This document shows, piece by piece, positions 140-32,749 of a stretch of 45,218 bases of DNA. Made by a program: the position numbers and the translations under genes. The DNA is from an uncultured Candidatus Saccharibacteria bacterium (GTDB lineage: Bacteria; Patescibacteriota; Minisyncoccia; Phycocordibacterales; UBA9973): positions 1 through 45,218 of the forward strand of contig CAZPJV010000002.1 in assembly GCA_964586975.1 (NCBI GenBank). Reading direction: 5' to 3'. Within the stretch, counting starts at the first letter, position 1; each line of letters begins with the position of its first letter. The notes beneath the pieces were generated by a model. That model was not told where the DNA came from. It was given only the letters and a program-made list of their open reading frames with translations, and did no database searches.

Positions 140-1342
140 TTAATTTTGTAATGACATTTTAGACTCTAGTGAAATAAATGCAACCAGGGCCGCCGAGGCG
201 GCCAGAGCGGCGAAGGCGAAAGCGTAAACGGGATTGAGAACCCAAAGACCGCCGGCGATGATGGACGCCAGTAAATAAAGAAGGCCCACGGCAAAGTTAT
301 AAAAACCGATGGCGGTCGCCCGCCGGTCCGGCTCCAGGTCGGCGATAAAGGCCTTGCTCTGCGCTTCGTCAATGGTGTAAAAAATTCCGAATAAAATAAA
401 CAGGGCTATAATTTCCCATTTGGTTTGCGCGAAAATAAATCCGAGCGCCATGGCGAAGTAAAGCAGGTAGCCCGAAATTATTATCGCCTGCCGGCCAATT
501 TTATCTCCTAGCTTGCCTATCGGCACGGCGAAGAGCACGAAGGAAATATTAAAAAGGGCGTAAAGCAGGACCACGTCTTTCAGCGCGAAGCCGGTTTGAT
601 AAGCGCGCAACAGCAAAAATCCAAAGCTGAAATACGCCAGCGAAAAAATTCCGGCGGGAATAAGAAAAGTTTTAAAGCCCGCGGACAGCGTGCCCCAGGC
701 CTGGAAAATATTTTCCCGCCGATGCGGCGCGCCCGGTTGGTCGCGCATCAGTGCCAAAACCAAAACTGCCGCGGCGGCCGCAACCACGGCAAAAATAAAA
801 AGGAGACGGAAAGCGCCCATATTTTCGCCCAGCGCCCGCAGGACAAAATAGGCCACCAGAGGCCCCAGGATCGCCCCGGCCTTGTCCAGAGCCTTGTGCA
901 GGCCGAAGGCATATCCCCTATTCTCCCGCTCGGCCACCGACGACAGCCAGGCGTCCCGCGGCGGCCCGCGGAAACTTTTGCCCAAGCGTTCAATAATTCT
1001 GAAAGACGCCAGCGAGGCGACGGAGGCCGGCGCCAGAAGCATTAATTTTGCGAGAGTGGAAAAGCCATAGCCGGAGATGGCGAGCGGTTTTCTTTTACCG
1101 GATTTATCAGAAAGCCAGCCGGAAACATAGTCCATCGAGGAAGCGGAAAAATCGGAAATACCTTCCACGATTCCCAAAAGCGAAGCCGGCGCGCCGACGA
1201 TGACCGTAAAGAAAACGGAGAAAATAGAGAAAATTATCTCCGAGCTGATGTCGGTCAGAAAACTCACTGCGCCCAGTTTGAGCACATCCGGATGCACGTT
1301 GAGAAATCTTTTGTCGGAATTGTCCAGCATGTTATTTGACAT
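140..1342 (-). CDS. MFS family transporter
   Basis: 400-aa ORF, highly hydrophobic with about 12 helices. MFS motif A-like loops GWLSDKSGKRKPL (N half) and GKLGDKIGRQ (C half). Its start overlaps the stop of the upstream 503-aa ORF; a second ATG (M5) at 1330 is an alternative start. Confidence 0.85.
   Translation of the reverse strand: MSNNMLDNSDKRFLNVHPDVLKLGAVSFLTDISSEIIFSIFSVFFTVIVGAPASLLGIVEGISDFSASSMDYVSGWLSDKSGKRKPLAISGYGFSTLAKLMLLAPASVASLASFRIIERLGKSFRGPPRDAWLSSVAERENRGYAFGLHKALDKAGAILGPLVAYFVLRALGENMGAFRLLFIFAVVAAAAAVLVLALMRDQPGAPHRRENIFQAWGTLSAGFKTFLIPAGIFSLAYFSFGFLLLRAYQTGFALKDVVLLYALFNISFVLFAVPIGKLGDKIGRQAIIISGYLLYFAMALGFIFAQTKWEIIALFILFGIFYTIDEAQSKAFIADLEPDRRATAIGFYNFAVGLLYLLASIIAGGLWVLNPVYAFAFAALAASAALVAFISLESKMSLQN
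1267..1327. repeat. Direct repeat copy 1 (5' coding end of the MFS gene)
   Basis: CTGCGCCCAGTTTGAGCACATCCGGATGCACGTTGAGAAATCTTTT is identical over 46 bp to 2881-2926. The next 15 bp still match apart from 4 mismatches. Confidence 0.95.
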
Positions 1343-2843
1343 TCTGTTCCAATAATCCTTCTCTCTCTAGCATTGCAAAATACACGGCTTTCTGCATCCT
1401 TGTTACGGAATGCCCAGTACCCCATTGCAGGAAACCGACGCCTCGTCTTGATTCCCATTCTTTTACAAATTGCATTCGCCTTTCTAGTGTTTGCGCTATG
1501 TATTCCTCTGGTATTTTTGAGTAATATTCGAAGTCGAATCCCACGATTTCCAACTGAACCTTGCCATTATCGACATGAACCTTGAAAGCATACCCATCAA
1601 GATCACTGTTCTCGTAGCCCATTTTTATTACTGCTTCTTTCATGAGTCCGCATGCTTGCCTGCTCATTCGTAATCCTTTCACCAATGCAAAATCTTCAAA
1701 TGAAACCTGGTTTTTGATACCTAGCAATGCACTCGCTTTTTCTATGACTTGCTTTGACAACCTGGACTCAAAAGACAAAGTTACGGTTGGATGGTTTTGA
1801 TATTTTTTTGCCAAAAGAGCTACTCGCTCATACTCTTCTCTAAACTGGTCCCGGTTATTCAAAATCTCCTGGGTCAGCTTTGCATTTACATCATCGTATG
1901 CGATTAATCCTTCTTCGAATTCAAAGATGGCGAACTGAAAACCATCCGGATAAGTCGCAAAGCCTACCGGTTTTTCCCACCTGATTTTTATATCCCCTTT
2001 TTCTTCTTCTACCTTTTCTTGAAATTGTTTGGAGGTGGCAAATTCCTGGGCAGATGACTGCCCTTCCTGGTGACCTCCTTTTTTAGTGTCTGTGTGACGA
2101 GCCGTTTTCTTTTCCTTAAGTAAATATTTTTTACCATTTACGTATATTTCATATACTCGATCTTTTAGTTGCTTTCTTTTTTCCCATAAGTGAGGCTTCA
2201 GTAAATCCGCCTTAGCGTCATCCTGAGACTCATCTATCAAAATCTTTACTCTACTTGGCAAAACAATTTCTCCAGTATCAGTAGGTGTAATATTAGAACC
2301 CTGCTCAAGAATTTCCGCCCCTAGGGCTAACAATTTGACATCTCTCGAATAGGCGTACCGTCTGGCAACAAGCAGACGTTCTTGCCTAGTAATACCACGC
2401 AGAAACACACCTGCTTTGATAGCCAACTGTACTCCTTCGGAATACATAGGACTATCTTTACCGTAAAATCGCTCGAGCCACGCTAACTCTTCCTCGGGTA
2501 ACACGAGTGTTTCGGCATTTGACAGGTCAGGTGCGAGAAACTCATCTGGCACCGGAGGTAATGCCAAACAGACGCCTAGGTCTTTTTGGTAGCGAGCACA
2601 CAACTTTCCAATTCTTTCGTCAGCAACCGATAAGGATTTTATAAATTCATCCGCTAAGGTTTCGGAGACTGGTTTCGTAGTAAATTCCGATACAAGACTC
2701 CGGACTTTCGGGTCATCAATAATATCCCTTCTAACCACCTCCGTGACCAAACGCCAAGACCTCTCAACAGCCTGCATCTGGATACCACCTTCCCTGCCAA
2801 TAACCGGTTTTCTGTGCACTATGTCAAGTGGATTTCCTTCCAT
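1332..2843 (-). CDS. Hypothetical protein (orphan, 503 aa) on an inserted cassette
   Basis: Long uninterrupted ORF with balanced amino-acid composition. It is visibly more AT-rich than the flanking MFS and PRTase genes. TGgTATAAT lies 6 nt upstream of its ATG. I recognise no family motif. Confidence 0.7.
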   Translation of the reverse strand: MEGNPLDIVHRKPVIGREGGIQMQAVERSWRLVTEVVRRDIIDDPKVRSLVSEFTTKPVSETLADEFIKSLSVADERIGKLCARYQKDLGVCLALPPVPDEFLAPDLSNAETLVLPEEELAWLERFYGKDSPMYSEGVQLAIKAGVFLRGITRQERLLVARRYAYSRDVKLLALGAEILEQGSNITPTDTGEIVLPSRVKILIDESQDDAKADLLKPHLWEKRKQLKDRVYEIYVNGKKYLLKEKKTARHTDTKKGGHQEGQSSAQEFATSKQFQEKVEEEKGDIKIRWEKPVGFATYPDGFQFAIFEFEEGLIAYDDVNAKLTQEILNNRDQFREEYERVALLAKKYQNHPTVTLSFESRLSKQVIEKASALLGIKNQVSFEDFALVKGLRMSRQACGLMKEAVIKMGYENSDLDGYAFKVHVDNGKVQLEIVGFDFEYYSKIPEEYIAQTLERRMQFVKEWESRRGVGFLQWGTGHSVTRMQKAVYFAMLEREGLLEQNVK

Positions 2844-2849
2844 AATAAA

Positions 2850-2858
2850 ATTATACCA
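2850..2858 (-). promoter_or_regulatory. Extended -10 box TGgTATAAT, 6 nt upstream of ATG 2843
   Basis: The reverse complement of 2850-2858 reads TGGTATAAT. Its position implies a leaderless or near-leaderless mRNA for the 503-aa ORF. Confidence 0.4.
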
Positions 2859-2880
2859 GTTTTTCGTGTTTTCTTGTAGG

Positions 2881-2941
2881 CTGCGCCCAGTTTGAGCACA
2901 TCCGGATGCACGTTGAGAAATCTTTTCTCTGAATTTTCCAC
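2881..2941. repeat. Direct repeat copy 2 (relic 5' end of the MFS gene)
   Basis: Matches 1267-1327. On the minus strand it reads GTG-ENSEKRFLNVHPDVLKLGA, a paralogous MFS N-terminus. It then runs into cassette sequence and stops after about 38 codons. TGcTATAAT (2948-2956) lies 6 nt upstream of the GTG. Confidence 0.9.
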
Positions 2942-2948
2942 CGGTAGA

Positions 2949-3572
2949 TTATAGCATATTCAAGAATCCAACTACTTCTGCGTCCGAGACCTGCGGAAAA
3001 TTGTGATAATAGGCCCCGACCGCGCCGAGATAACTGCGCTCGTCTTGCAACACCACGGCCGCGTCCGCCTCGGCGTGCAGAATCCGCATAAATTCGTGCG
3101 GCGCCACCGGCACCGCCACGACCAGCTCTTGCGGTTTTTCTTTGCGCAGAGAACGAAGCGCCGCCAGCATAGTCAACCCGGTGGCGACTCCATCGTCCAC
3201 CACAATCGCGATTTTATTTTGGGCCGAACGATATTGCCGGCCCGGCAAATATGTCTCCCGGCGCCGCCGCGCTTCGGCCAATTCTTTCCGCGCCTCGGCT
3301 TTCAGCCATTTAGGGTCCAGCAATTCTTTTTCTTTTTCGCTGCAGAAAAGCTCTCCTTTTTCGGTAATGGCGGCAACCGCGTATTCCGGATTTTCCGGAT
3401 GCCCGATTTTTCTGGCAATCACCAGCTCCAGCGGCACGCGTAAAAATTTCGCTATCTCATAGCCCAAAACCACCCCGCCCCGCGGCAGAGCATACACCAC
3501 AGCGTCTTGGCCCGCGTATTGTGAGAGCTCTTCAGCCAGCAACCGCCCGGCTTCTTTTCGGTCTTGAAACAT
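2949..3572 (-). CDS. Phosphoribosyltransferase family protein (COG1926-like)
   Basis: PRPP-binding motif IAIVVDDGVATGLTM. The N-terminus MFQDRKEAGRLLAEEL is typical of this family. The ORF-track start at 3635 adds 21 residues that would abut the tRNA fragment, so I prefer ATG 3572. Confidence 0.8.
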   Translation of the reverse strand: MFQDRKEAGRLLAEELSQYAGQDAVVYALPRGGVVLGYEIAKFLRVPLELVIARKIGHPENPEYAVAAITEKGELFCSEKEKELLDPKWLKAEARKELAEARRRRETYLPGRQYRSAQNKIAIVVDDGVATGLTMLAALRSLRKEKPQELVVAVPVAPHEFMRILHAEADAAVVLQDERSYLGAVGAYYHNFPQVSDAEVVGFLNML

Positions 3573-3637
3573 ATTTAAAGTATACTCCTCTTTTTGCGAT
3601 TTTTTGGAAAATAAGATAAAATGGCGAAGCATCATTT

Positions 3638-3702
3638 GGCCCTATCGTCCCTCGGCCGTAGCCCAAGGCTACTAGGCCTATGGGCGAGGCTAACGGTTAG
3701 GA
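3638..3702 (+). other. Truncated tRNA-Glu 5' half with a 41-nt hairpin insertion in the D-loop
   Basis: GGCCCTATCGTC (3638-3649) plus TAACGGTTAGGA (3691-3702) equal nt 1-24 of the intact tRNA-Glu at 3940-3963. They are interrupted by CCTCGGCCGTAGCCCAAGGCTACTAGGCCTATGGGCGAGGC, which has an outer stem CCTCG/CGAGG and an inner hairpin GTAGCC-CAA-GGCTAC. Confidence 0.85.
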
Positions 3703-3706
3703 TTTT

Positions 3707-3961
3707 ATGCATATAGTTTATGTATTAAAAAGTTTGAAGGATAATAATTTATACATAGGTTGTACCTCCAATTTTGACAAAAGATTGGACTATCACAATA
3801 CCGGAAAAGTTGATTCAACAAAAAATCGCAGACCATTCATCCTGGTATATAAAGAAGAATATGATAGTATCTATGAAGCTTTCCGTGCTGAGAAATTTTA
3901 CAAAACAGCAATGGGGAAAAGAAAATTGAAAGAAAAATTGGCCCTATCGTCTAACGGTTAG
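3707..3961 (+). CDS. GIY-YIG nuclease family protein (84 aa, domain only)
   Basis: N-terminal VYVLKS...LYIGCTSNFDKRLDYHN pattern (GIY...YIG...R...H-N) plus a downstream conserved E/K region. The last 7 codons and the stop are encoded by the 5' end of tRNA-Glu. Confidence 0.85.
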   Translation: MHIVYVLKSLKDNNLYIGCTSNFDKRLDYHNTGKVDSTKNRRPFILVYKEEYDSIYEAFRAEKFYKTAMGKRKLKEKLALSSNG

Positions 3962-4011
3962 GACATCGGCTTTTCAAGCCGGTAATCCGGGTTCGATTCC
4001 CGGTAGGGTCA
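3940..4011 (+). tRNA. tRNA-Glu (anticodon TTC), no encoded CCA
   Basis: Acceptor GGCCCTA/TAGGGTC, anticodon loop TTTTCAA, T arm CCGGG-TTCGATT-CCCGG, discriminator A. Confidence 0.9.
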
Positions 4012-4138
4012 CACCTCATATTACACCACATTTATCACACCCTGACAAACTGGAGTTTGTAGGGGTGTTGGTTTGTAGAAAAAATTTTTGCAAAACAAAA
4101 CCCCGCAAAAGAGTTCAGGACCCTAAACTGCGGGGTCG

Positions 4139-6640: not shown

Positions 6641-6653
6641 CATTTCTTTATGT

Positions 6654-6703
6654 GCGCGTAGCTCAGCTTGCCCCGCCTGAACTAGGCGGGGTGAAGTAGA
6701 GCG
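6654..6703 (+). other. tRNA D-arm-like fragment A with hairpin inserted in the D-loop
   Basis: GCGCGTAGCTCAGCTTG[CCCCGCCTGAACTAGGCGGGG]TGAAGTAGAGCG. The flanks resemble tRNA positions about 1-25 and no anticodon arm follows. Confidence 0.7.
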
Positions 6704-6734
6704 TAAAAATATGTTATCATTTTGGTTCACAAGG

Positions 6735-6808
6735 GGGCGGTTAGCTCATTTGGCTAGAGCGCGTCGTTGACGTCGACGAGGTAACAAGTTCGAGTCTTGT
6801 ACCGCCCA
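6735..6808 (+). tRNA. tRNA-Val (anticodon GAC), no encoded CCA
   Basis: Acceptor GGGCGGT/ACCGCCC, anticodon stem CGTCG/CGACG with loop TTGACGT, T arm ACAAG-TTCGAGT-CTTGT, discriminator A. Confidence 0.9.
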
Positions 6809-6809
6809 C

Positions 6810-7079
6810 ATGAGTTGTTATGTATATTTGATTCAAAGCAGTTTAGATAAGAGTTTCTATGTTGGCATATCTGAAGATCCATTTAAACGTCTTCATGAGC
6901 ATAATAGCGGTAAATTAAAAAGTACTTCAAGAAAGAAACCATATGCCATGATTTATACAAAAGAATATCCAGATTATAAATCTGCAAGGAAACACGAAAT
7001 TTGGTTGAAAAAGAAAAATTTAAATTATAAATTAAGGTTAGCTCAGCTTGCCCCGCCTAGTTCAGGTGGGGTAAACTAG
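6810..7079 (+). CDS. GIY-YIG nuclease family protein (89 aa, domain only)
   Basis: CYVYLIQS...FYVGISEDPFKRLHEHN pattern. The ATG begins 2 nt after the tRNA-Val discriminator base. The C-terminal 14 codons read through tRNA-like fragment B. Confidence 0.85.
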   Translation: MSCYVYLIQSSLDKSFYVGISEDPFKRLHEHNSGKLKSTSRKKPYAMIYTKEYPDYKSARKHEIWLKKKNLNYKLRLAQLAPPSSGGVN

Positions 7080-7100
7080 AGCGACCTCTTGACGTGTGTC
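7035..7100 (+). other. Degenerate tRNA-Val-like 5' fragment B with hairpin in the D-loop
   Basis: GGTTAGCTCAGCTTG[CCCCGCCTAGTTCAGGTGGGG]TAAACTAGAGCGACCTCTTGACGTG. The D-arm flanks match fragment A and tRNA-Val. TTGAC recalls the Val anticodon loop, but no stem or 3' half follows. Confidence 0.65.
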
Positions 7101-29350: not shown

Positions 29351-32300
29351 TTATAAAACTATATTGATAAGCCTGCCCGGCACATAAATAACTTTCTTGA
29401 TATTTTTGCCGGCGATATGCTTGATGGCTGTTTCGTTGGCCAGAGCTTGTATTTTAACCTTTTCTGCCGGGGCTTCCGCGCTTATCACAATTTCCGCCCG
29501 AACTTTGCCGTTAACCTGCACCGCGATTTTTATTTCCTCATCTTTTATTAAATTTCTGTCCCATTTGGGCCATATTGAAAGACTGATAGATTTTTTCTCG
29601 CCGAGCCCTTGCCAAAGTTCTTCGGCGATGTGGGGAGCAAAGGGCGAAAGAATTTGCAAGAACATTTTAAAATCTTTAATTGAAATCCACTGCGCCCGTT
29701 CCATCTCCGTTGCTAAAATCATCATGGCTGAAATTGCGGTATTGAAACGCATATTTTCTATATCTTCCGTAACTTTTTTAATGGTTTTGTGAAGAATTTT
29801 TTTTAAGGTCAAATCCACCCCTCCCTGTCCCTCCCCAAAGGAGAGGGTTATTCCCCCTCTTTTGGAGGGGGTTAGGGGGAGGTGAAGAATTTTCTGCCCT
29901 ATTTTCCACACTCGTTCCAAAAACCTTCGCGGGCCGACTATCGCCTCTTCGCTCCAGGCAATCGCCTGGTCAAAAGGGCCCATGAACATTTCATAAAGCC
30001 GCAGGGTGTCGGCGCCGTATCTTTTCACGATATCGTCGGGATTAATCACATTGCCGCGTGACTTGGACATTTTTTCACCGCCTTCAGCCAAAATCAGCCC
30101 GTGCGAGGTGCGCTTTTTATATGGCTCACTCGTGGGCACCAATTTCAAATCATACAAAAACTTGTGCCAAAAGCGCGAATAAAGCAGGTGGAGCGTAGTG
30201 TGTTCGTTGCCGCCGTTGTACCAGTCAACCCCTCCCTGGCCCTCCCCCAAGGAGAGGGAATTTTTGTTCCCCTTCCTTGGGAAGGGGTTAGGGGTAGGTC
30301 CAAGCCAGTATTTCAAATTTTTCTTTGAGGCAAACTCTTTACTATTTTGGGGGTTAGCATATCGTAAATAATACCAAGAACTCCCCGCCCAGTTAGGCAT
30401 GGTATCCGTTTCGCGTCTGGCAGGACCTTTGCATTTCGGACATTTGGTATTTACCCATTTGGAAATATTTGCCAAAGGTGACTCGCCTGTTTCTGTCGGC
30501 TGATAATTTTTAATTTTCGGCAAAAGAACCGGCAAATCTTTTTCCGGTACCGGCACCCAAGTATTTGAGCAAGGACTACCCTTGCTCACGCAGAAAACTA
30601 CCGGTATCGGCTCCCCCCAATATCTCTGCCGGGAAAAGACCCAGTCCCGCAGTTTGAAAGTTGTCTTTTCCCTGCCGCCGACAAATCTTACGATTTCCCT
30701 TTTCACTTTTTCAGAATCCATGCCGTCGAATTTGCCGGAATTGGCGAGAATTCCTTCGCCGGTATAAACCTGTTCCTGCCCCTGCAAAATATGCCAGTCG
30801 CGCAGAGAACCTTCAATGTTCATAATTCTTTCTAACTCCGGTTTGGTAACCCAGATTAATTCATGTTTTTCTTTTTCGTCCGGAGTAAGTTCTTTCTGTT
30901 CCCCATTTTTTAATTCAAAATAAAAATTGGAGAAATGCGCGAAACGATTTTCTTTCTTGGGCACGTGGTAAAACTTGCTGTGTGAGCGCGGCAGTTCTTT
31001 CAGTAACTTAAAATTCTGATAGCCGGTTTCTTCCCTGATTTCGCGTTCAACTGCTTGGAGCGGTGTTTCTCCTTCATCTACACCACCCGTTATAAATGTT
31101 ACCCAATCAACTTTTTTCCATTTCAAAACCAAATATTTGTCCTCCGAACAATGCTTTAATATCGCATGTACTGCTTCCCGTTCCACGAACGGCAAATCTT
31201 CTCTAGGATTATCAAAAAAGGTCGGCTCAATTACATTTTTAATCGGCAAACTGTATTTTTTCGCAAATTCAAAATCGCGTTCGTCATGCGCCGGCACAGC
31301 CATAATCGCGCTGGTGCCATAGTCATAAGACACATAGTTCACAACCCATACAGGAATCTCTTCGCCATTCGCAGGATTGATGGCTCGGAGGCCAGTATCT
31401 TTTCCTATTTTTTCCCCGCCTGCCATCGCCTGCGGCTTCAGGCCGTGGCGGGCAGGCTTATTTTCCTCTGATTTTACACCAAAGTCACTGCCCGCTAGTT
31501 TCTTCGCGACCTCCGGAGCAATCGCCAAATAAGTCGCTCCGAAAATCGTGTCCGGGCGAGTGGTGAAAACTTTAATGCCCAATTCAACCTCTCCCTGGCC
31601 CTCTCCCAAGGAGAGGGGGTAATCCGGAAGAGTTTCCAATTTTTTATTTATCCTCCTTATTACATCTGCTAAGTTTTCTAAAACTTCCTCATTTGAAAAT
31701 CGGAGAATGGTATAACCAAGTGTTTCCAGCCGATTGATCCTTTCGGCATCTCTTTCTCTCTGATAATTATGAACACCCCCCTCAATTTCTATAACCAAGT
31801 TTTTCGGAAGACAAAGAAAGTCCACAATAAAATGATCAATTATATGCTGTCTTCTGAAATGATATCTCTGTTTGTTCGCTTTTAGCGCTTCCCATAATTT
31901 CCTTTCAGCTTGAGTGGGGTTCTTTCTCATTTCTAATGCTTTCTCAAAAAGTTCCTTATATACTTCAGCATCAGTGGTGACATAACCCGGCAATGCCCCC
32001 CTTCCTTGGGAAGGGGCTGGGGGTAGGTCTGGGGTTAGGTTCTTTATTTTAAATTCTATCTCTGCCCCCTCGGACTTCCCTATCCAATTTCTTTGCGCAA
32101 GTTTTATGTGCGGCAAGTAGTCCACGGTATCTAAATCTTTATCTAACCTTTCCGCATATTTAGTAATCCCCAGCATCCACTGCTCTTTTTCTTTTTTTTC
32201 CACCGGCGTGCCGCAACGTTCGCAAGCGCCACCCACAACCTCTTCATTGGCCAAACCGATTTTACAGGACGGGCACCAATTAATCGGAATTTTTGCTTTG

Positions 32301-32749
32301 TAAGCCAAACCTTTTTTCAAAAATTGCAAAAATATCCACTGCGTCCACTTGTAGTATTTCGGATCAGTGGTATTTATTTCCCGCGACCAGTCAAAAGAAA
32401 TTCCCAGGGATTTTATCTGCTGGCGGAAAGTATCGCTATTTTTTTTAGTAACCACCCGAGGGTCTTGACCGGTCTTGATGGCGTAGTTTTCCGTCGGCAA
32501 ACCAAACGCGTCCCAACCGATGGGGTAAAGCACATTAAAACCTTCCATCCTTTTTTTTCTGGAAATCACATCCATCCCGATATACGGCCGCGGATGTCCC
32601 ACATGCAACCCGTCGCCGGAAGGATAAGGAAACTCAATCAAGCTGTAATATTTAGGTTGTTTTGATAGATCTTTGGCTTGAAAAACCTTCTTTTCCTCCC
32701 AAATTTTCTGCCACTTTCGTTCCAACCCCAAATGCTCATATTCTTTCAT
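29351..32749 (-). CDS. leuS: Leucine--tRNA ligase carrying five in-frame insertions (three TIR elements, one with a DUF559 domain; one hairpin element; one Nudix domain)
   Basis: HIGH (GDGLHVGHP), KMSKS (KMSKSRGN), CP1 editing motifs (TTRPDTIFGATY, GTSAIMAVPAHDERDFEFA), RDWVFSRQRYWGEPIP, and GGNEHTTLHLLYSRFW. At 1132 aa it is much longer than the roughly 860 aa of E. coli LeuRS. Confidence 0.95.
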   Translation of the reverse strand: MKEYEHLGLERKWQKIWEEKKVFQAKDLSKQPKYYSLIEFPYPSGDGLHVGHPRPYIGMDVISRKKRMEGFNVLYPIGWDAFGLPTENYAIKTGQDPRVVTKKNSDTFRQQIKSLGISFDWSREINTTDPKYYKWTQWIFLQFLKKGLAYKAKIPINWCPSCKIGLANEEVVGGACERCGTPVEKKEKEQWMLGITKYAERLDKDLDTVDYLPHIKLAQRNWIGKSEGAEIEFKIKNLTPDLPPAPSQGRGALPGYVTTDAEVYKELFEKALEMRKNPTQAERKLWEALKANKQRYHFRRQHIIDHFIVDFLCLPKNLVIEIEGGVHNYQRERDAERINRLETLGYTILRFSNEEVLENLADVIRRINKKLETLPDYPLSLGEGQGEVELGIKVFTTRPDTIFGATYLAIAPEVAKKLAGSDFGVKSEENKPARHGLKPQAMAGGEKIGKDTGLRAINPANGEEIPVWVVNYVSYDYGTSAIMAVPAHDERDFEFAKKYSLPIKNVIEPTFFDNPREDLPFVEREAVHAILKHCSEDKYLVLKWKKVDWVTFITGGVDEGETPLQAVEREIREETGYQNFKLLKELPRSHSKFYHVPKKENRFAHFSNFYFELKNGEQKELTPDEKEKHELIWVTKPELERIMNIEGSLRDWHILQGQEQVYTGEGILANSGKFDGMDSEKVKREIVRFVGGREKTTFKLRDWVFSRQRYWGEPIPVVFCVSKGSPCSNTWVPVPEKDLPVLLPKIKNYQPTETGESPLANISKWVNTKCPKCKGPARRETDTMPNWAGSSWYYLRYANPQNSKEFASKKNLKYWLGPTPNPFPRKGNKNSLSLGEGQGGVDWYNGGNEHTTLHLLYSRFWHKFLYDLKLVPTSEPYKKRTSHGLILAEGGEKMSKSRGNVINPDDIVKRYGADTLRLYEMFMGPFDQAIAWSEEAIVGPRRFLERVWKIGQKILHLPLTPSKRGGITLSFGEGQGGVDLTLKKILHKTIKKVTEDIENMRFNTAISAMMILATEMERAQWISIKDFKMFLQILSPFAPHIAEELWQGLGEKKSISLSIWPKWDRNLIKDEEIKIAVQVNGKVRAEIVISAEAPAEKVKIQALANETAIKHIAGKNIKKVIYVPGRLINIVL
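29816..29884. repeat. TIR-family palindromic element (cargo-less, 69 bp), in frame in leuS
   Basis: CACCCCTCCCTGTCCCTCCCCAAAGGAGAGGG-TTATT-CCCCCTCTTTTGGAGGGGGTTAGGGGGAGGTG. It encodes LTPSKRGGITLSFGEGQGGV. Confidence 0.85.
30227..30299. repeat. TIR-family palindromic element (cargo-less), in frame in leuS
   Basis: AACCCCTCCCTGGCCCTCCCCCAAGGAGAGGG-AATTTTTGTT-CCCCTTCCTTGGGAAGGGGTTAGGGGTAGGT. It encodes PTPNPFPRKGNKNSLSLGEGQGG immediately before VDWYNGGNEH. Confidence 0.85.
30800..31190 (-). other. Nudix hydrolase domain embedded in LeuRS
   Basis: GGVDEGETPLQAVEREIREETGY (31019-31087) fits the Nudix box GX5EX7REUXEEXGU at every position. Flanking beta-strand-like segments (AVHAILKH..YLVLKW; FYFEL; LIWVT) complete a domain of about 130 aa that E. 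coli LeuRS lacks at this point. Confidence 0.85.
31414..31457. repeat. CTGCCCGCC hairpin element, in frame in leuS CP1
   Basis: On the minus strand it reads GCCTGCCCGCC-ACGGCCTGAAGCCGCAGGCGAT-GGCAGGCGGGG and encodes KPARHGLKPQAMAGGEK. The murJ copy encodes a similar MPARQLAGGDGEK. Confidence 0.6.
31586..32040. mobile_element. TIR-bounded element carrying a DUF559 (Vsr-like) endonuclease domain, in frame in leuS
   Basis: The arm 31586-31620 and the reverse complement of 31996-32028 match at 25 of 33 positions. The interior encodes PTQAERKLWEALK...FRRQHIIDHFIVDFLCLPKNLVIEIEGGVH...RDAERINRLETLGYTILRFSNEEV, which is the DUF559 hallmark pattern. Boundaries are approximate. Confidence 0.8.

Follow-up and report, generated by a model that had tools for sequence, protein, structure and literature searches.

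In the 45,218-nt stretch of DNA analysed here (the window), which belongs to contig CAZPJV010000002.1 of an uncultured Candidatus Saccharibacteria bacterium, a transporter gene of the major facilitator superfamily (MFS) has received a cassette of 1554 nt. The cassette is a real and evolutionarily recent insertion at codon 21 of the MFS gene, in a Paceibacterota-like genome of the candidate phyla radiation (CPR). Its only gene encodes a 503-aa protein with a predicted kinase-like fold, and the transporter gene remains intact, with a relic of its original start left behind on the far side of the insert. The event is best explained as the recent insertion of a single-gene cassette by Campbell-type homologous insertion-duplication, that is, by a single crossover between the resident gene and an imported copy of its 5' end. 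A probability of roughly 0.55 is given to this explanation.

The locus is made up of the following features, all on the minus strand; numbers preceded by L denote loci that were collected for comparison.

140..1330, minus strand: intact MFS transporter gene, the target (Pfam MFS_1, 4e-33; orthologues at most 90% identical in amino acids)
1267..1326, minus strand: live (downstream) repeat copy, MFS codons 2-21, contiguous with the remaining MFS open reading frame (ORF)
1327..2880, minus strand: cassette-specific DNA, 1554 nt, recognised by its junctions, its GC content of 0.34-0.49 and its absence from L026, L030, L036, L037 and L038
1332..2843, minus strand: 503-aa ORF, from the ORF list
2850..2858, minus strand: TGgTATAAT, an extended -10-like box at a distance of 6 nt from the start codon (ATG) of the 503-aa ORF, read from the sequence
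2881..2941, minus strand: relic (upstream) repeat copy, GTG (2941-2939) and 20 codons, cut off by the cassette after nt 61
2948..2956, minus strand: TGcTATAAT box, 6 nt before the relic GTG, overlapping the stop codon (2949-2951) of the next gene
2949..3635, minus strand: phosphoribosyltransferase (PRTase) gene, native upstream neighbour of the MFS gene (Pfam Pribosyltran; orthologous to the PRTase of L026, L037 and L038); its true start probably lies near 3572

A repeat search of the window recovered a 60-nt direct repeat of 95% identity (1267-1326 against 2881-2940). Its core, 1267-1312 and 2881-2926, is identical at 46 of 46 nt; it is followed by three mismatches in 14 nt, and the 15th position differs as well, just as the first-pass annotation had described it (46 perfect bp and a further 15 bp with four mismatches). 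The chance expectation for an exact 46-mer repeat in 45 kb is about 2e-19. The boundary of the repeat on the cassette side is sharp (2880/2881), whereas at the opposite boundary the similarity fades through the three mismatches and then ends. The two copies are identical through ...GGGCGCAG (nt 61 of the gene), beyond which the relic continues with the cassette DNA CCTACAAG... and the live copy with the MFS sequence TGAGTTTT.... Read as an ORF from 2941 on the minus strand, the relic gives GTG-ENSEKRFLNVHPDVLKLGA and then runs into unrelated sequence.

The cassette consists of a 37-nt leader with the TGgTATAAT box, the 503-aa ORF and, at its end, the TAA-C-ATG-C of the replacement MFS start. 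The ORFs first reported for the MFS gene, the 503-aa protein and the relic are all present in the ORF list (140..1342, 1332..2843 and the GTG at 2941, minus strand). The longest MFS ORF is thus 140..1342; the gene call P0082 (396 aa) and the N-termini of the orthologues favour the ATG at 1330. With this start, the stop codon of the 503-aa ORF (TAA, 1334-1332) is separated from the MFS ATG by a 1-nt spacer, and the overlap of stop and start that had been claimed would exist only with the ATG at 1342.

Both extended -10 boxes lie on the minus strand where they had been noticed. A simple sigma-70 promoter scan called neither of them, and no -35 element was found at TGgTATAAT. The TGcTATAAT box at 2948-2956 is probably the native -10 box of the MFS gene. 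The layout TATAAT-N6-start is also found at the MFS genes of L037 (~213-230), L026 (5983-6003) and L038, at the relic (2956-2939) and at the kinase-like gene of the cassette (2850-2843). This spacing suggests that leaderless transcription may be usual at the MFS locus.

In the GC profile, the cassette is indeed lower (0.34-0.49) than the neighbouring MFS and PRTase genes (0.49-0.63). Low GC is not peculiar to it; several other ORFs in the window lie at 0.38-0.42, and composition alone is therefore weak evidence. The repeat search of the window found no inverted repeat bracketing the cassette, and its sole ORF, which has no match in Pfam, NCBIfam or PHROG, provides no integrase, transposase, recombinase or nuclease. 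For the cassette, the early remark is thus correct: neither a transposase nor an integrase nor an inverted repeat can be seen. Ten other ORFs of the window, six of them of low GC, were scanned, and no recombinase was found among these ten.

Paceibacterota-like genomes widely carry the MFS gene, which is strongly conserved among them. Its locus was taken from five sets of relatives and compared with the window by blastn. In L037, a groundwater contig from the European Nucleotide Archive, the MFS has a protein identity of 82% and a DNA identity of 77.6% to that of the window. Colinearity extends over both sides of the insert: window 3161-2883 (the 3' end of the PRTase gene and the relic) corresponds to L037 6-286, and window 1326-51 (the live MFS gene) to L037 229-1503. 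L037 is thus an empty site, in which the MFS start codon comes directly after the PRTase gene. In the alignment the relic GTG stands opposite the MFS ATG of L037, and at its N-terminus the relic, reading (M)ENSEKRFLNVH, corresponds to MENSGKRFLDVH. The 503-aa gene is absent from the MFS locus in all the relatives examined (L026-29, L030-32, L036, L037 and L038-39), whose MFS DNA identity ranges from 74 to 85%. The proposal of a recent insertion that duplicated, or brought along, about 60 nt of its target and kept the transporter intact is borne out by the empty site, by the alignment of the two start codons and by the relatives that lack the gene.

In the nearest MFS relative, L026 (85% DNA identity), the site is not simply empty: a 5.7-kb island and a tRNA-Glu gene lie between its PRTase and MFS genes. 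L037 was used instead for this reason. The interval from the NTP-transferase/GDH genes to the MFS gene is hypervariable, and its cargo differs in each relative. In L026-29 (L026 271-5400) it holds LexA/S24-like, Dcm methylase, AAA_18 and HTH genes along with tRNA-Glu, in L030/32 (L030 3705-4928) tRNA-Glu and an AT-rich, Lys-rich 407-aa ORF without a Pfam match, and in L038/39 (L038 2947-4993) small ORFs, a GIY-YIG gene and tRNA-Glu. Even the position and orientation of the tRNA-Glu gene upstream of MFS vary between the relatives. Thus, the insertion sits in a recombination hot spot.

Comparison of the two repeat copies indicates that the second MFS 5' end was most likely brought along by the cassette, which is favoured over duplication in place. 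All three mismatches inside the window repeat are at third-codon positions (GAA/GAC, TCA/TCC and GAG/GAC). When the window is pooled with L042 and L068, two of the cassettes described below, 10 of 15 repeat mismatches are at third-codon positions (binomial p = 0.0085). The live start, ATGCTG-GACAATTCC (ATG CTG GAC AAT TCC GAC), is like the ML-type start of L026 and L038, ATGCTGTCGGGAGAAAATTCC (ATG CTG TCG GGA GAA AAT TCC GGA), so the cassette-side sequence just outside the repeat is still MFS-like. The relic start, GTG-GAAAATTCA, is like the L037 start, ATG-GAGAACTCC. The two copies have therefore drifted apart while each served as a functional gene end in a lineage of its own. The 46-nt block is the most conserved DNA of the MFS 5' region, as L030, whose MFS is 76% identical overall, differs from it at only 2 of 46 positions. 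It is therefore plausible that the donor was identical to the recipient across the block. An event that depends on homology would, moreover, select for such identity.

The inferred recombination mechanism and uptake route (as well as the kinase activity, likewise inferred, which is considered later) can be pictured as follows. The incoming DNA, from another lineage, would have carried the kinase-like gene next to the first ~60 nt of an orthologous MFS gene; its junction would have read TAA-C-ATGCTGGACAATTCCGAC at the end of the kinase-like gene, without an upstream relic. The crossover would have taken place inside the 46-nt conserved block, between the imported segment and the resident MFS 5' end, and a single crossover would require a circular or concatemeric incoming molecule. 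Natural competence, along with the Rec functions of the host, would be the likely means. In the outcome, the original start remains as a 61-nt relic behind the PRTase gene, and the working MFS gene begins with the imported start and is transcribed with the kinase-like gene, downstream of it. Because the gene survives only if the fragment includes a true gene end, gene ends are what is seen. Recombination between the repeats would free a circle of the cassette and one repeat, which could enter a relative likewise. Constructed in silico, the circle junction would read ...GAACAGAATGTCAAATAACATGCTGGACAATTCCGAC + 46-nt block + CCTACAAGAAAACACG..., and the empty site would consist of the PRTase end + GTGGAAAATTCAGAG + 46-nt block + TGAGTTTTCTG.

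The observed product has what characterises a Campbell integration, namely a target-homologous segment on both sides of the insert. It has been reported that the com uptake genes are conserved across CPR phyla, and that Saccharibacteria undergo natural transformation, in which homology arms serve to integrate the DNA (PMC10633639).

Homologues of the 503-aa protein were then considered in their own surroundings. The loci were collected from species genomes (25), from metagenomes (37) and via exact look-ups (nine more). For each locus the two 2.5-kb flanks were compared with each other by blastn, and mock positions in the same loci were treated alike. Direct similarity of the flanks was observed in 13 of 52 loci versus 2 of 43 mock positions (Fisher p = 0.006), and both mock positives fall within one tandem paralogue array. 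Pairs of tRNA genes, distant paralogues, an internal protein repeat and duplicate contigs were left out of the clean analogues. In L022, the repeat rejected as a cassette boundary consists of two tRNA-Ser genes; in L069, of internal repeats of the 1866-aa protein that contains the domain; and in L006 and L012, of paralogous genes farther from the homologue (a tandem array of four in L006). L016 and L058 were not used, their homologue being fragmented under genetic code 11.

After filtering, three clean analogues remained, with a different target gene in each; the first-pass annotation had advised looking for homologues nested in duplicated gene 5' ends, and the analogues lie at duplicated 5' or 3' ends.

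L068: cassette of 1985 nt with a single gene; 102-nt repeats, 92% identical; target, the last 32 codons of a response-regulator gene
L042/43/44: cassette of 2.8 kb with the homologue and a HicAB-like pair; 86-nt repeats, 95% identical; target, a 260-aa membrane-protein gene
L051/52: repeated segment of about 25-45 nt, in three copies; target, a 122-aa ORF (3' end)

In L068, one copy is the live 3' end of the target and the other is a relic. The repeats of L042/43/44 span the promoter and the first 23 codons of the membrane-protein gene, and the HicA/HicB-like pair in the L042 cassette (names read from the translation) lies at 2697-3266. In L051/52, the copies separate the homologue from a block of GNAT and ABC-exporter genes; the 122-aa ORF may, at a guess, be RmuC-like. 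The homologue of L005, together with a GIY-YIG gene, lies between two copies of an entire 105-aa gene (77% DNA identity). The homologues in the analogue cassettes are only 31-44% identical to the window protein, and the cassettes are therefore regarded as independent events. The cassette ends of the window, L068, L042 and L051 share no sequence or motif, their repeats come from four unrelated genes and have no common att core, and there is no integrase in the cassettes of L068, L042 and L051.

Among ~55 loci, the other homologues have neither a conserved neighbourhood nor an MFS neighbour. GIY-YIG genes were considered as a systematic partner of the family and rejected, as one stands beside the homologue in L005 only. 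The GC content of the homologues mostly tracks that of the host, with a mean difference of -0.017; for the window gene the difference is -0.10, among the largest, which fits a recent arrival of the cassette.

Several points weigh against the Campbell-type explanation. Homology of 46-61 bp, and in L051 of only about 25-45 bp, lies close to or under the range in which RecA is efficient in model bacteria. A Campbell event makes both copies hybrids of donor and recipient, and identity over 46 nt therefore needs either a donor identical to the recipient or conversion. No same-species empty allele or donor was seen, a 32-mer of the repeat core having no exact match in the metagenome contigs, and no circular intermediate was found. 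About 40 of about 50 homologue loci have no detectable flanking repeat. The integrase screen, moreover, covered a part of the window only (ten ORFs).

Among the other explanations, the one that survives best, itself rather unlikely, takes the cassette as a non-autonomous integrative element of the cis-mobilisable type. The gene-end repeats would be attL and attR, and a site-specific recombinase would act in trans from the genome, a phage or a plasmid. Gene-end direct repeats together with a restored target are indeed the classic outcome of an integrase, the cassette-side boundary of the repeat is sharp, and in L051 the three copies separate two adjacent cassettes, like tandem accretion at one att site. 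However, an integrase is absent from every cassette, in the window and in the analogues alike, and the scan of ten other window ORFs returned no recombinase. The repeats differ in sequence, in length (about 25-102 nt) and in target, with no shared core or end motif, so that many recombinase specificities would be needed. Further, no member of the protein family was found on viral contigs. It had been suggested at the outset that the behaviour is that of integrative elements which restore tRNA 3' ends; the likeness describes the outcome well but does not establish membership of that class, as neither an integrase nor a common att site is present.

A more doubtful candidate is homology-facilitated illegitimate recombination (HFIR) of a linear fragment, in which the MFS segment would anchor by homology while the far end would be joined illegitimately at nt 61. 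One sharp boundary (2880/2881) and one fading boundary would correspond to one illegitimate and one homologous junction, and the perfect 46/46 identity is expected if both copies are derived from the recipient. Bacteria with natural competence are documented to undergo HFIR, and it is also a proposed origin of relic-keeping gene arrays (PMC3240628; PMC5361080). Nevertheless, it normally deletes or replaces recipient DNA, and a duplication would need extra replication or a second copy of the chromosome. Gene-end duplication in at least four independent cases is unexpected from random illegitimate joints, and HFIR is reportedly orders of magnitude rarer than homologous recombination (PMC5361080). 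Similarly doubtful is the idea that the kinase-like family as a whole consists of integrase-less mobile cassettes with a portable gene-end homology arm, which would loop out, re-enter relatives by transformation and repair the target. In a stronger version, the kinase-like protein itself would promote excision or integration.

Duplication in place, by transposition-like staggered cuts ~60 nt apart with later drift of the relic, is highly improbable. The direct repeats do immediately flank the insert, but there is no transposase and no terminal inverted repeat, and the repeat length varies between cases (about 25-102 nt). Third-position changes, synonymous or conservative, account for the mismatches, which cluster at one end, and the ATGC outside the live copy continues the ML-type MFS start of other lineages rather than unrelated DNA. 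Just as little likelihood attaches to an assembly artefact, be it a chimeric join of two strains at a common k-mer or a collapsed repeat. The contig that holds the window was assembled from a metagenome; yet a k-mer chimera at the MFS 5' end gives no junction of GGGCGCAG with CCTACAAG unless it is in real reads, the ORFs are intact on both sides, and independent assemblies of different samples and phyla (L068, L042/43/44 and L051/52) show the same architecture. Finally, a conserved ancestral operon of the 503-aa and MFS genes with an incidental relic deserves next to no credence and is refuted as the ancestral state for the window lineage, as the 503-aa gene is absent from the examined MFS relatives, an empty site exists in L037, no other homologue adjoins an MFS gene and neighbourhoods differ across ~55 loci; the tight packing TAA-C-ATG, which would suit such an operon, indicates that in the donor lineage the two genes were adjacent and probably co-transcribed.

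The 503-aa protein had been taken for an orphan. It has, in fact, 81 homologues of 29-51% identity and about 320-560 aa, and when 1.84 billion representatives were searched exhaustively with a profile, 248 clusters (at 50% identity) emerged, of which 195 lie below 1e-30, without a remote tail. The family is compact and closed, and was previously unannotated. The named sources of the family are all CPR (Uhrbacteria, Saccharimonadales, Levyibacteriota, Woesebacteria, Gottesmanbacteria, Paceibacterota and Peribacteria), and a few bins are otherwise labelled. The protein has no match in Pfam (even at E <= 1), PHROGs, PADLOC or NCBIfam, and none among PDB sequences, profile search included; six unusually long family members are also without a match in Pfam.

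Some homologues are unusual in their form. In L069 (68-5668), a kinase-like module (about aa 490-980) lies within the 1866-aa ORF, which has Cys/Gly-rich internal repeats (...GGGCPSFFKSIVRSAAGFGGLGDLPLL...) on both sides of the module and no Pfam domain; the protein P0289 is a relative. In L016 (519-1829) and L058 (4968-6032), translation with genetic code 11 yields the homologue as several separate ORFs; these could be pseudogenes, or another genetic code could be in use (L016 carries the label Peribacteria).

An AlphaFold2 model of the protein was built with a 51-sequence alignment. In the full-length model (pLDDT 94, pTM 0.90), residues 1-185 form a helical domain, after which comes a two-lobed alpha/beta domain (about 190-503). 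In Foldseek, all the top PDB matches and most BFVD matches of the full model are protein-kinase-like, and include YtaA/CotI, APH(3'), WaaP (probability 0.98), glucosamine kinase, PI3K/mTOR and Ser/Thr kinases of giant viruses. The C-terminal domain modelled alone (pLDDT 93) matched APH(3')-Ia, YtaA, N-acetylhexosamine kinase (NahK), WaaP (0.99), amicoumacin kinase (AmiN), APH(9) and the choline kinase LicA. At first, no motif could be placed in the protein; the models now make it likely that the C-terminal domain has a protein-kinase-like fold, with the APH/CotI/WaaP/choline-kinase branch nearest, whose kinases act on small molecules or on the cell envelope.

In the alignment, K243, E267 and E439 are invariant, and D414 and D437 are kept in 50 of 51 sequences. 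K243 is found at the end of a beta-strand (YILKEKKT) and E267 at the start of the next helix, D414 is part of N412-S-D414-x-D416-G, and D437 and E439 are part of GFDFEY. The conserved residues are compatible with a kinase core: by their positions in the model, K243, E267 and D437 are on the secondary-structure elements expected for the ATP-binding Lys, the alpha-C Glu and the metal-binding Asp of kinases. The N-terminal helical domain carries an invariant segment of its own, RYRxARDVK. As modelled, the protein is probably an active kinase. Two observations count against the kinase assignment: the Foldseek scores are marginal (E 5e-4 to 1e-2, TM 0.2-0.39, probability up to 0.99), and the canonical HxDxxxxN catalytic loop is absent from the family alignment.

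Other assignments of the protein were tried and rejected. A PD-(D/E)XK nuclease, whose motif the invariant D228...E244-K-K246 resembled, was set aside because the model and Foldseek put these residues on N-lobe strands of the kinase-like fold. For a tyrosine recombinase, an HUH enzyme or a ligase, considered in view of conserved Arg, Lys and His residues, there was no support from the fold and sequence searches, and no Foldseek match corresponded to a class III/IV lanthipeptide synthetase-like lyase plus kinase. Judged by its model, the protein does not look like a recombinase or a nuclease.

It is tentatively suggested that the protein phosphorylates a small molecule, for example an antibiotic or an imported metabolite. 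Such a substrate is suggested by the fold neighbours, by the MFS gene that would have adjoined it in the donor, and by the GNAT, methyltransferase and ABC-exporter genes beside homologues elsewhere. Thus, a GNAT acetyltransferase and an S-adenosylmethionine (SAM)-methyltransferase-like ORF are neighbours in L040 (1288-4150) and L001 (117-2979), and the homologue of L051 (1834-4123) adjoins GNAT and ABC-exporter genes, all these names being read from translations.

Several other features of the window may be recorded. A 5' fragment of tRNA-Glu (3637-3700), with a 40-nt hairpin in the D-loop region, is a partial duplication that bounds a second insertion (3637-4012). It is followed by an 84-aa GIY-YIG ORF (3707-3961), which runs into the intact tRNA-Glu gene (3940-4012). 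The same tRNA fragment and tRNA are present in L026 (5425-5600), where the GIY-YIG ORF is reduced to its first three and last few codons. A second GIY-YIG ORF (6810-7079) comes directly after tRNA-Val (6735-6809) in the region 6652-7083. This pair is flanked by two 45-nt copies resembling a tRNA D-arm, 82% identical (6659-6703 and 7039-7083), each with a GC-rich hairpin at the D-loop position. Between tRNA-Glu and the NTP-transferase gene, the segment 4020-4640 reaches a GC content of 0.68, and two ORFs (137 and 113 aa) overlap there on opposite strands. Nothing in Rfam matches the segment, and its only similarity is over 39 nt to L030. Farther along, two domains, a DUF559/Vsr-like endonuclease (aa 268-371, in frame) and a NUDIX domain (aa 547-639), are found within a leucyl-tRNA synthetase ORF of 1132 aa (29351-32749, minus strand). 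The ORF also contains GC-rich palindromic repeats (29814-29884, 30225-30300, 31584-31617 and 31998-32029), two of which bracket the DUF559 insert.

The genomes of CPR bacteria are tiny and hold few mobile elements that can be recognised, yet strains differ in many ways that are still unexplained. The MFS locus offers a worked example of gene gain, in which the filled site, the empty site of a relative, the relic and the imported gene end are all visible. Recombinase-free gene movement may be at work here. If short gene-end homology suffices to move cassettes, much of the turnover of CPR accessory genes could be explained without dedicated mobility enzymes, and this idea is directly testable, since Saccharibacteria are transformable (PMC10633639). 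The recurrence of such cassettes across CPR lineages is the part worth pursuing. The protein, for its part, is a good biochemical target: its family is unannotated, is modelled with confidence and combines a kinase-like fold with an extra domain that is conserved.

Compared with known systems, the cassette differs from an insertion sequence or transposon in having no transposase and no terminal inverted repeats, and in duplications of about 25-102 nt instead of a fixed length. It differs from a homing endonuclease gene as well, for the 503-aa protein has no LAGLIDADG, GIY-YIG, HNH, PD-(D/E)XK or related nuclease domain or fold. An integron cassette would have attC-like inverted repeats, which are missing from the cassette ends, and no integrase was found among the ten window ORFs scanned. 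Integrase-borne islands and prophages at gene ends (tRNA 3' ends or protein genes) are closer. Like the window cassette, they are flanked by repeats of the target end, supply a replacement end and leave a relic opposite, and the site in the window lies in a hypervariable interval beside tRNA-Glu. The window cassette, in contrast, has no integrase or excisionase and spans 1.55 kb with one cargo gene, and its related cassettes are at unrelated targets, with variable repeat length and no common core. Since an integrase and a common att core were sought and not found, the cassette is not classed as an integrase element.

The protein can be compared with APH, choline kinase, CotI and WaaP. It shares with them the predicted two-lobed fold, in which the invariant Lys on a beta-3-like strand (K243), the invariant Glu on the following helix (E267) and the conserved motif GFDFE may correspond to their ATP-binding Lys, alpha-C Glu and DFG/DxD metal-binding loop. 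Unlike them, it matches neither Pfam APH nor any other sequence model, has N-S-D-x-D-G in place of HxDxxxxN, and carries an extra conserved helical domain of ~185 residues with RYRxARDVK. The 503-aa protein is a new family within a known fold class.

As for the process, HFIR has been described in Acinetobacter, S. pneumoniae and P. stutzeri, and is proposed for the T6SS (type VI secretion system) effector-immunity arrays in Vibrio cholerae (PMC5361080). The likeness lies in one-sided homology that imports foreign DNA and in relics of old genes that can persist beside the newcomer; the difference is that the usual outcome of HFIR is replacement or deletion and not a clean, gene-restoring duplication as in the window. 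The Campbell-type scheme predicts the very order of flank, homology copy, insert, homology copy and rest of the gene. It also predicts survival of the gene only with a fragment that holds the gene end, and copies that are hybrids of donor and recipient. In the genetics of naturally competent bacteria, insertion-duplication is the integration of circular DNA by homologous recombination, and it is known mainly as a laboratory procedure that uses hundreds of bp of homology. The window event differs in being natural, in its homology of 46-61 bp and in that no circular substrate has been seen. Taken by analogy, the process at the MFS locus most resembles this laboratory insertion-duplication, or else HFIR.

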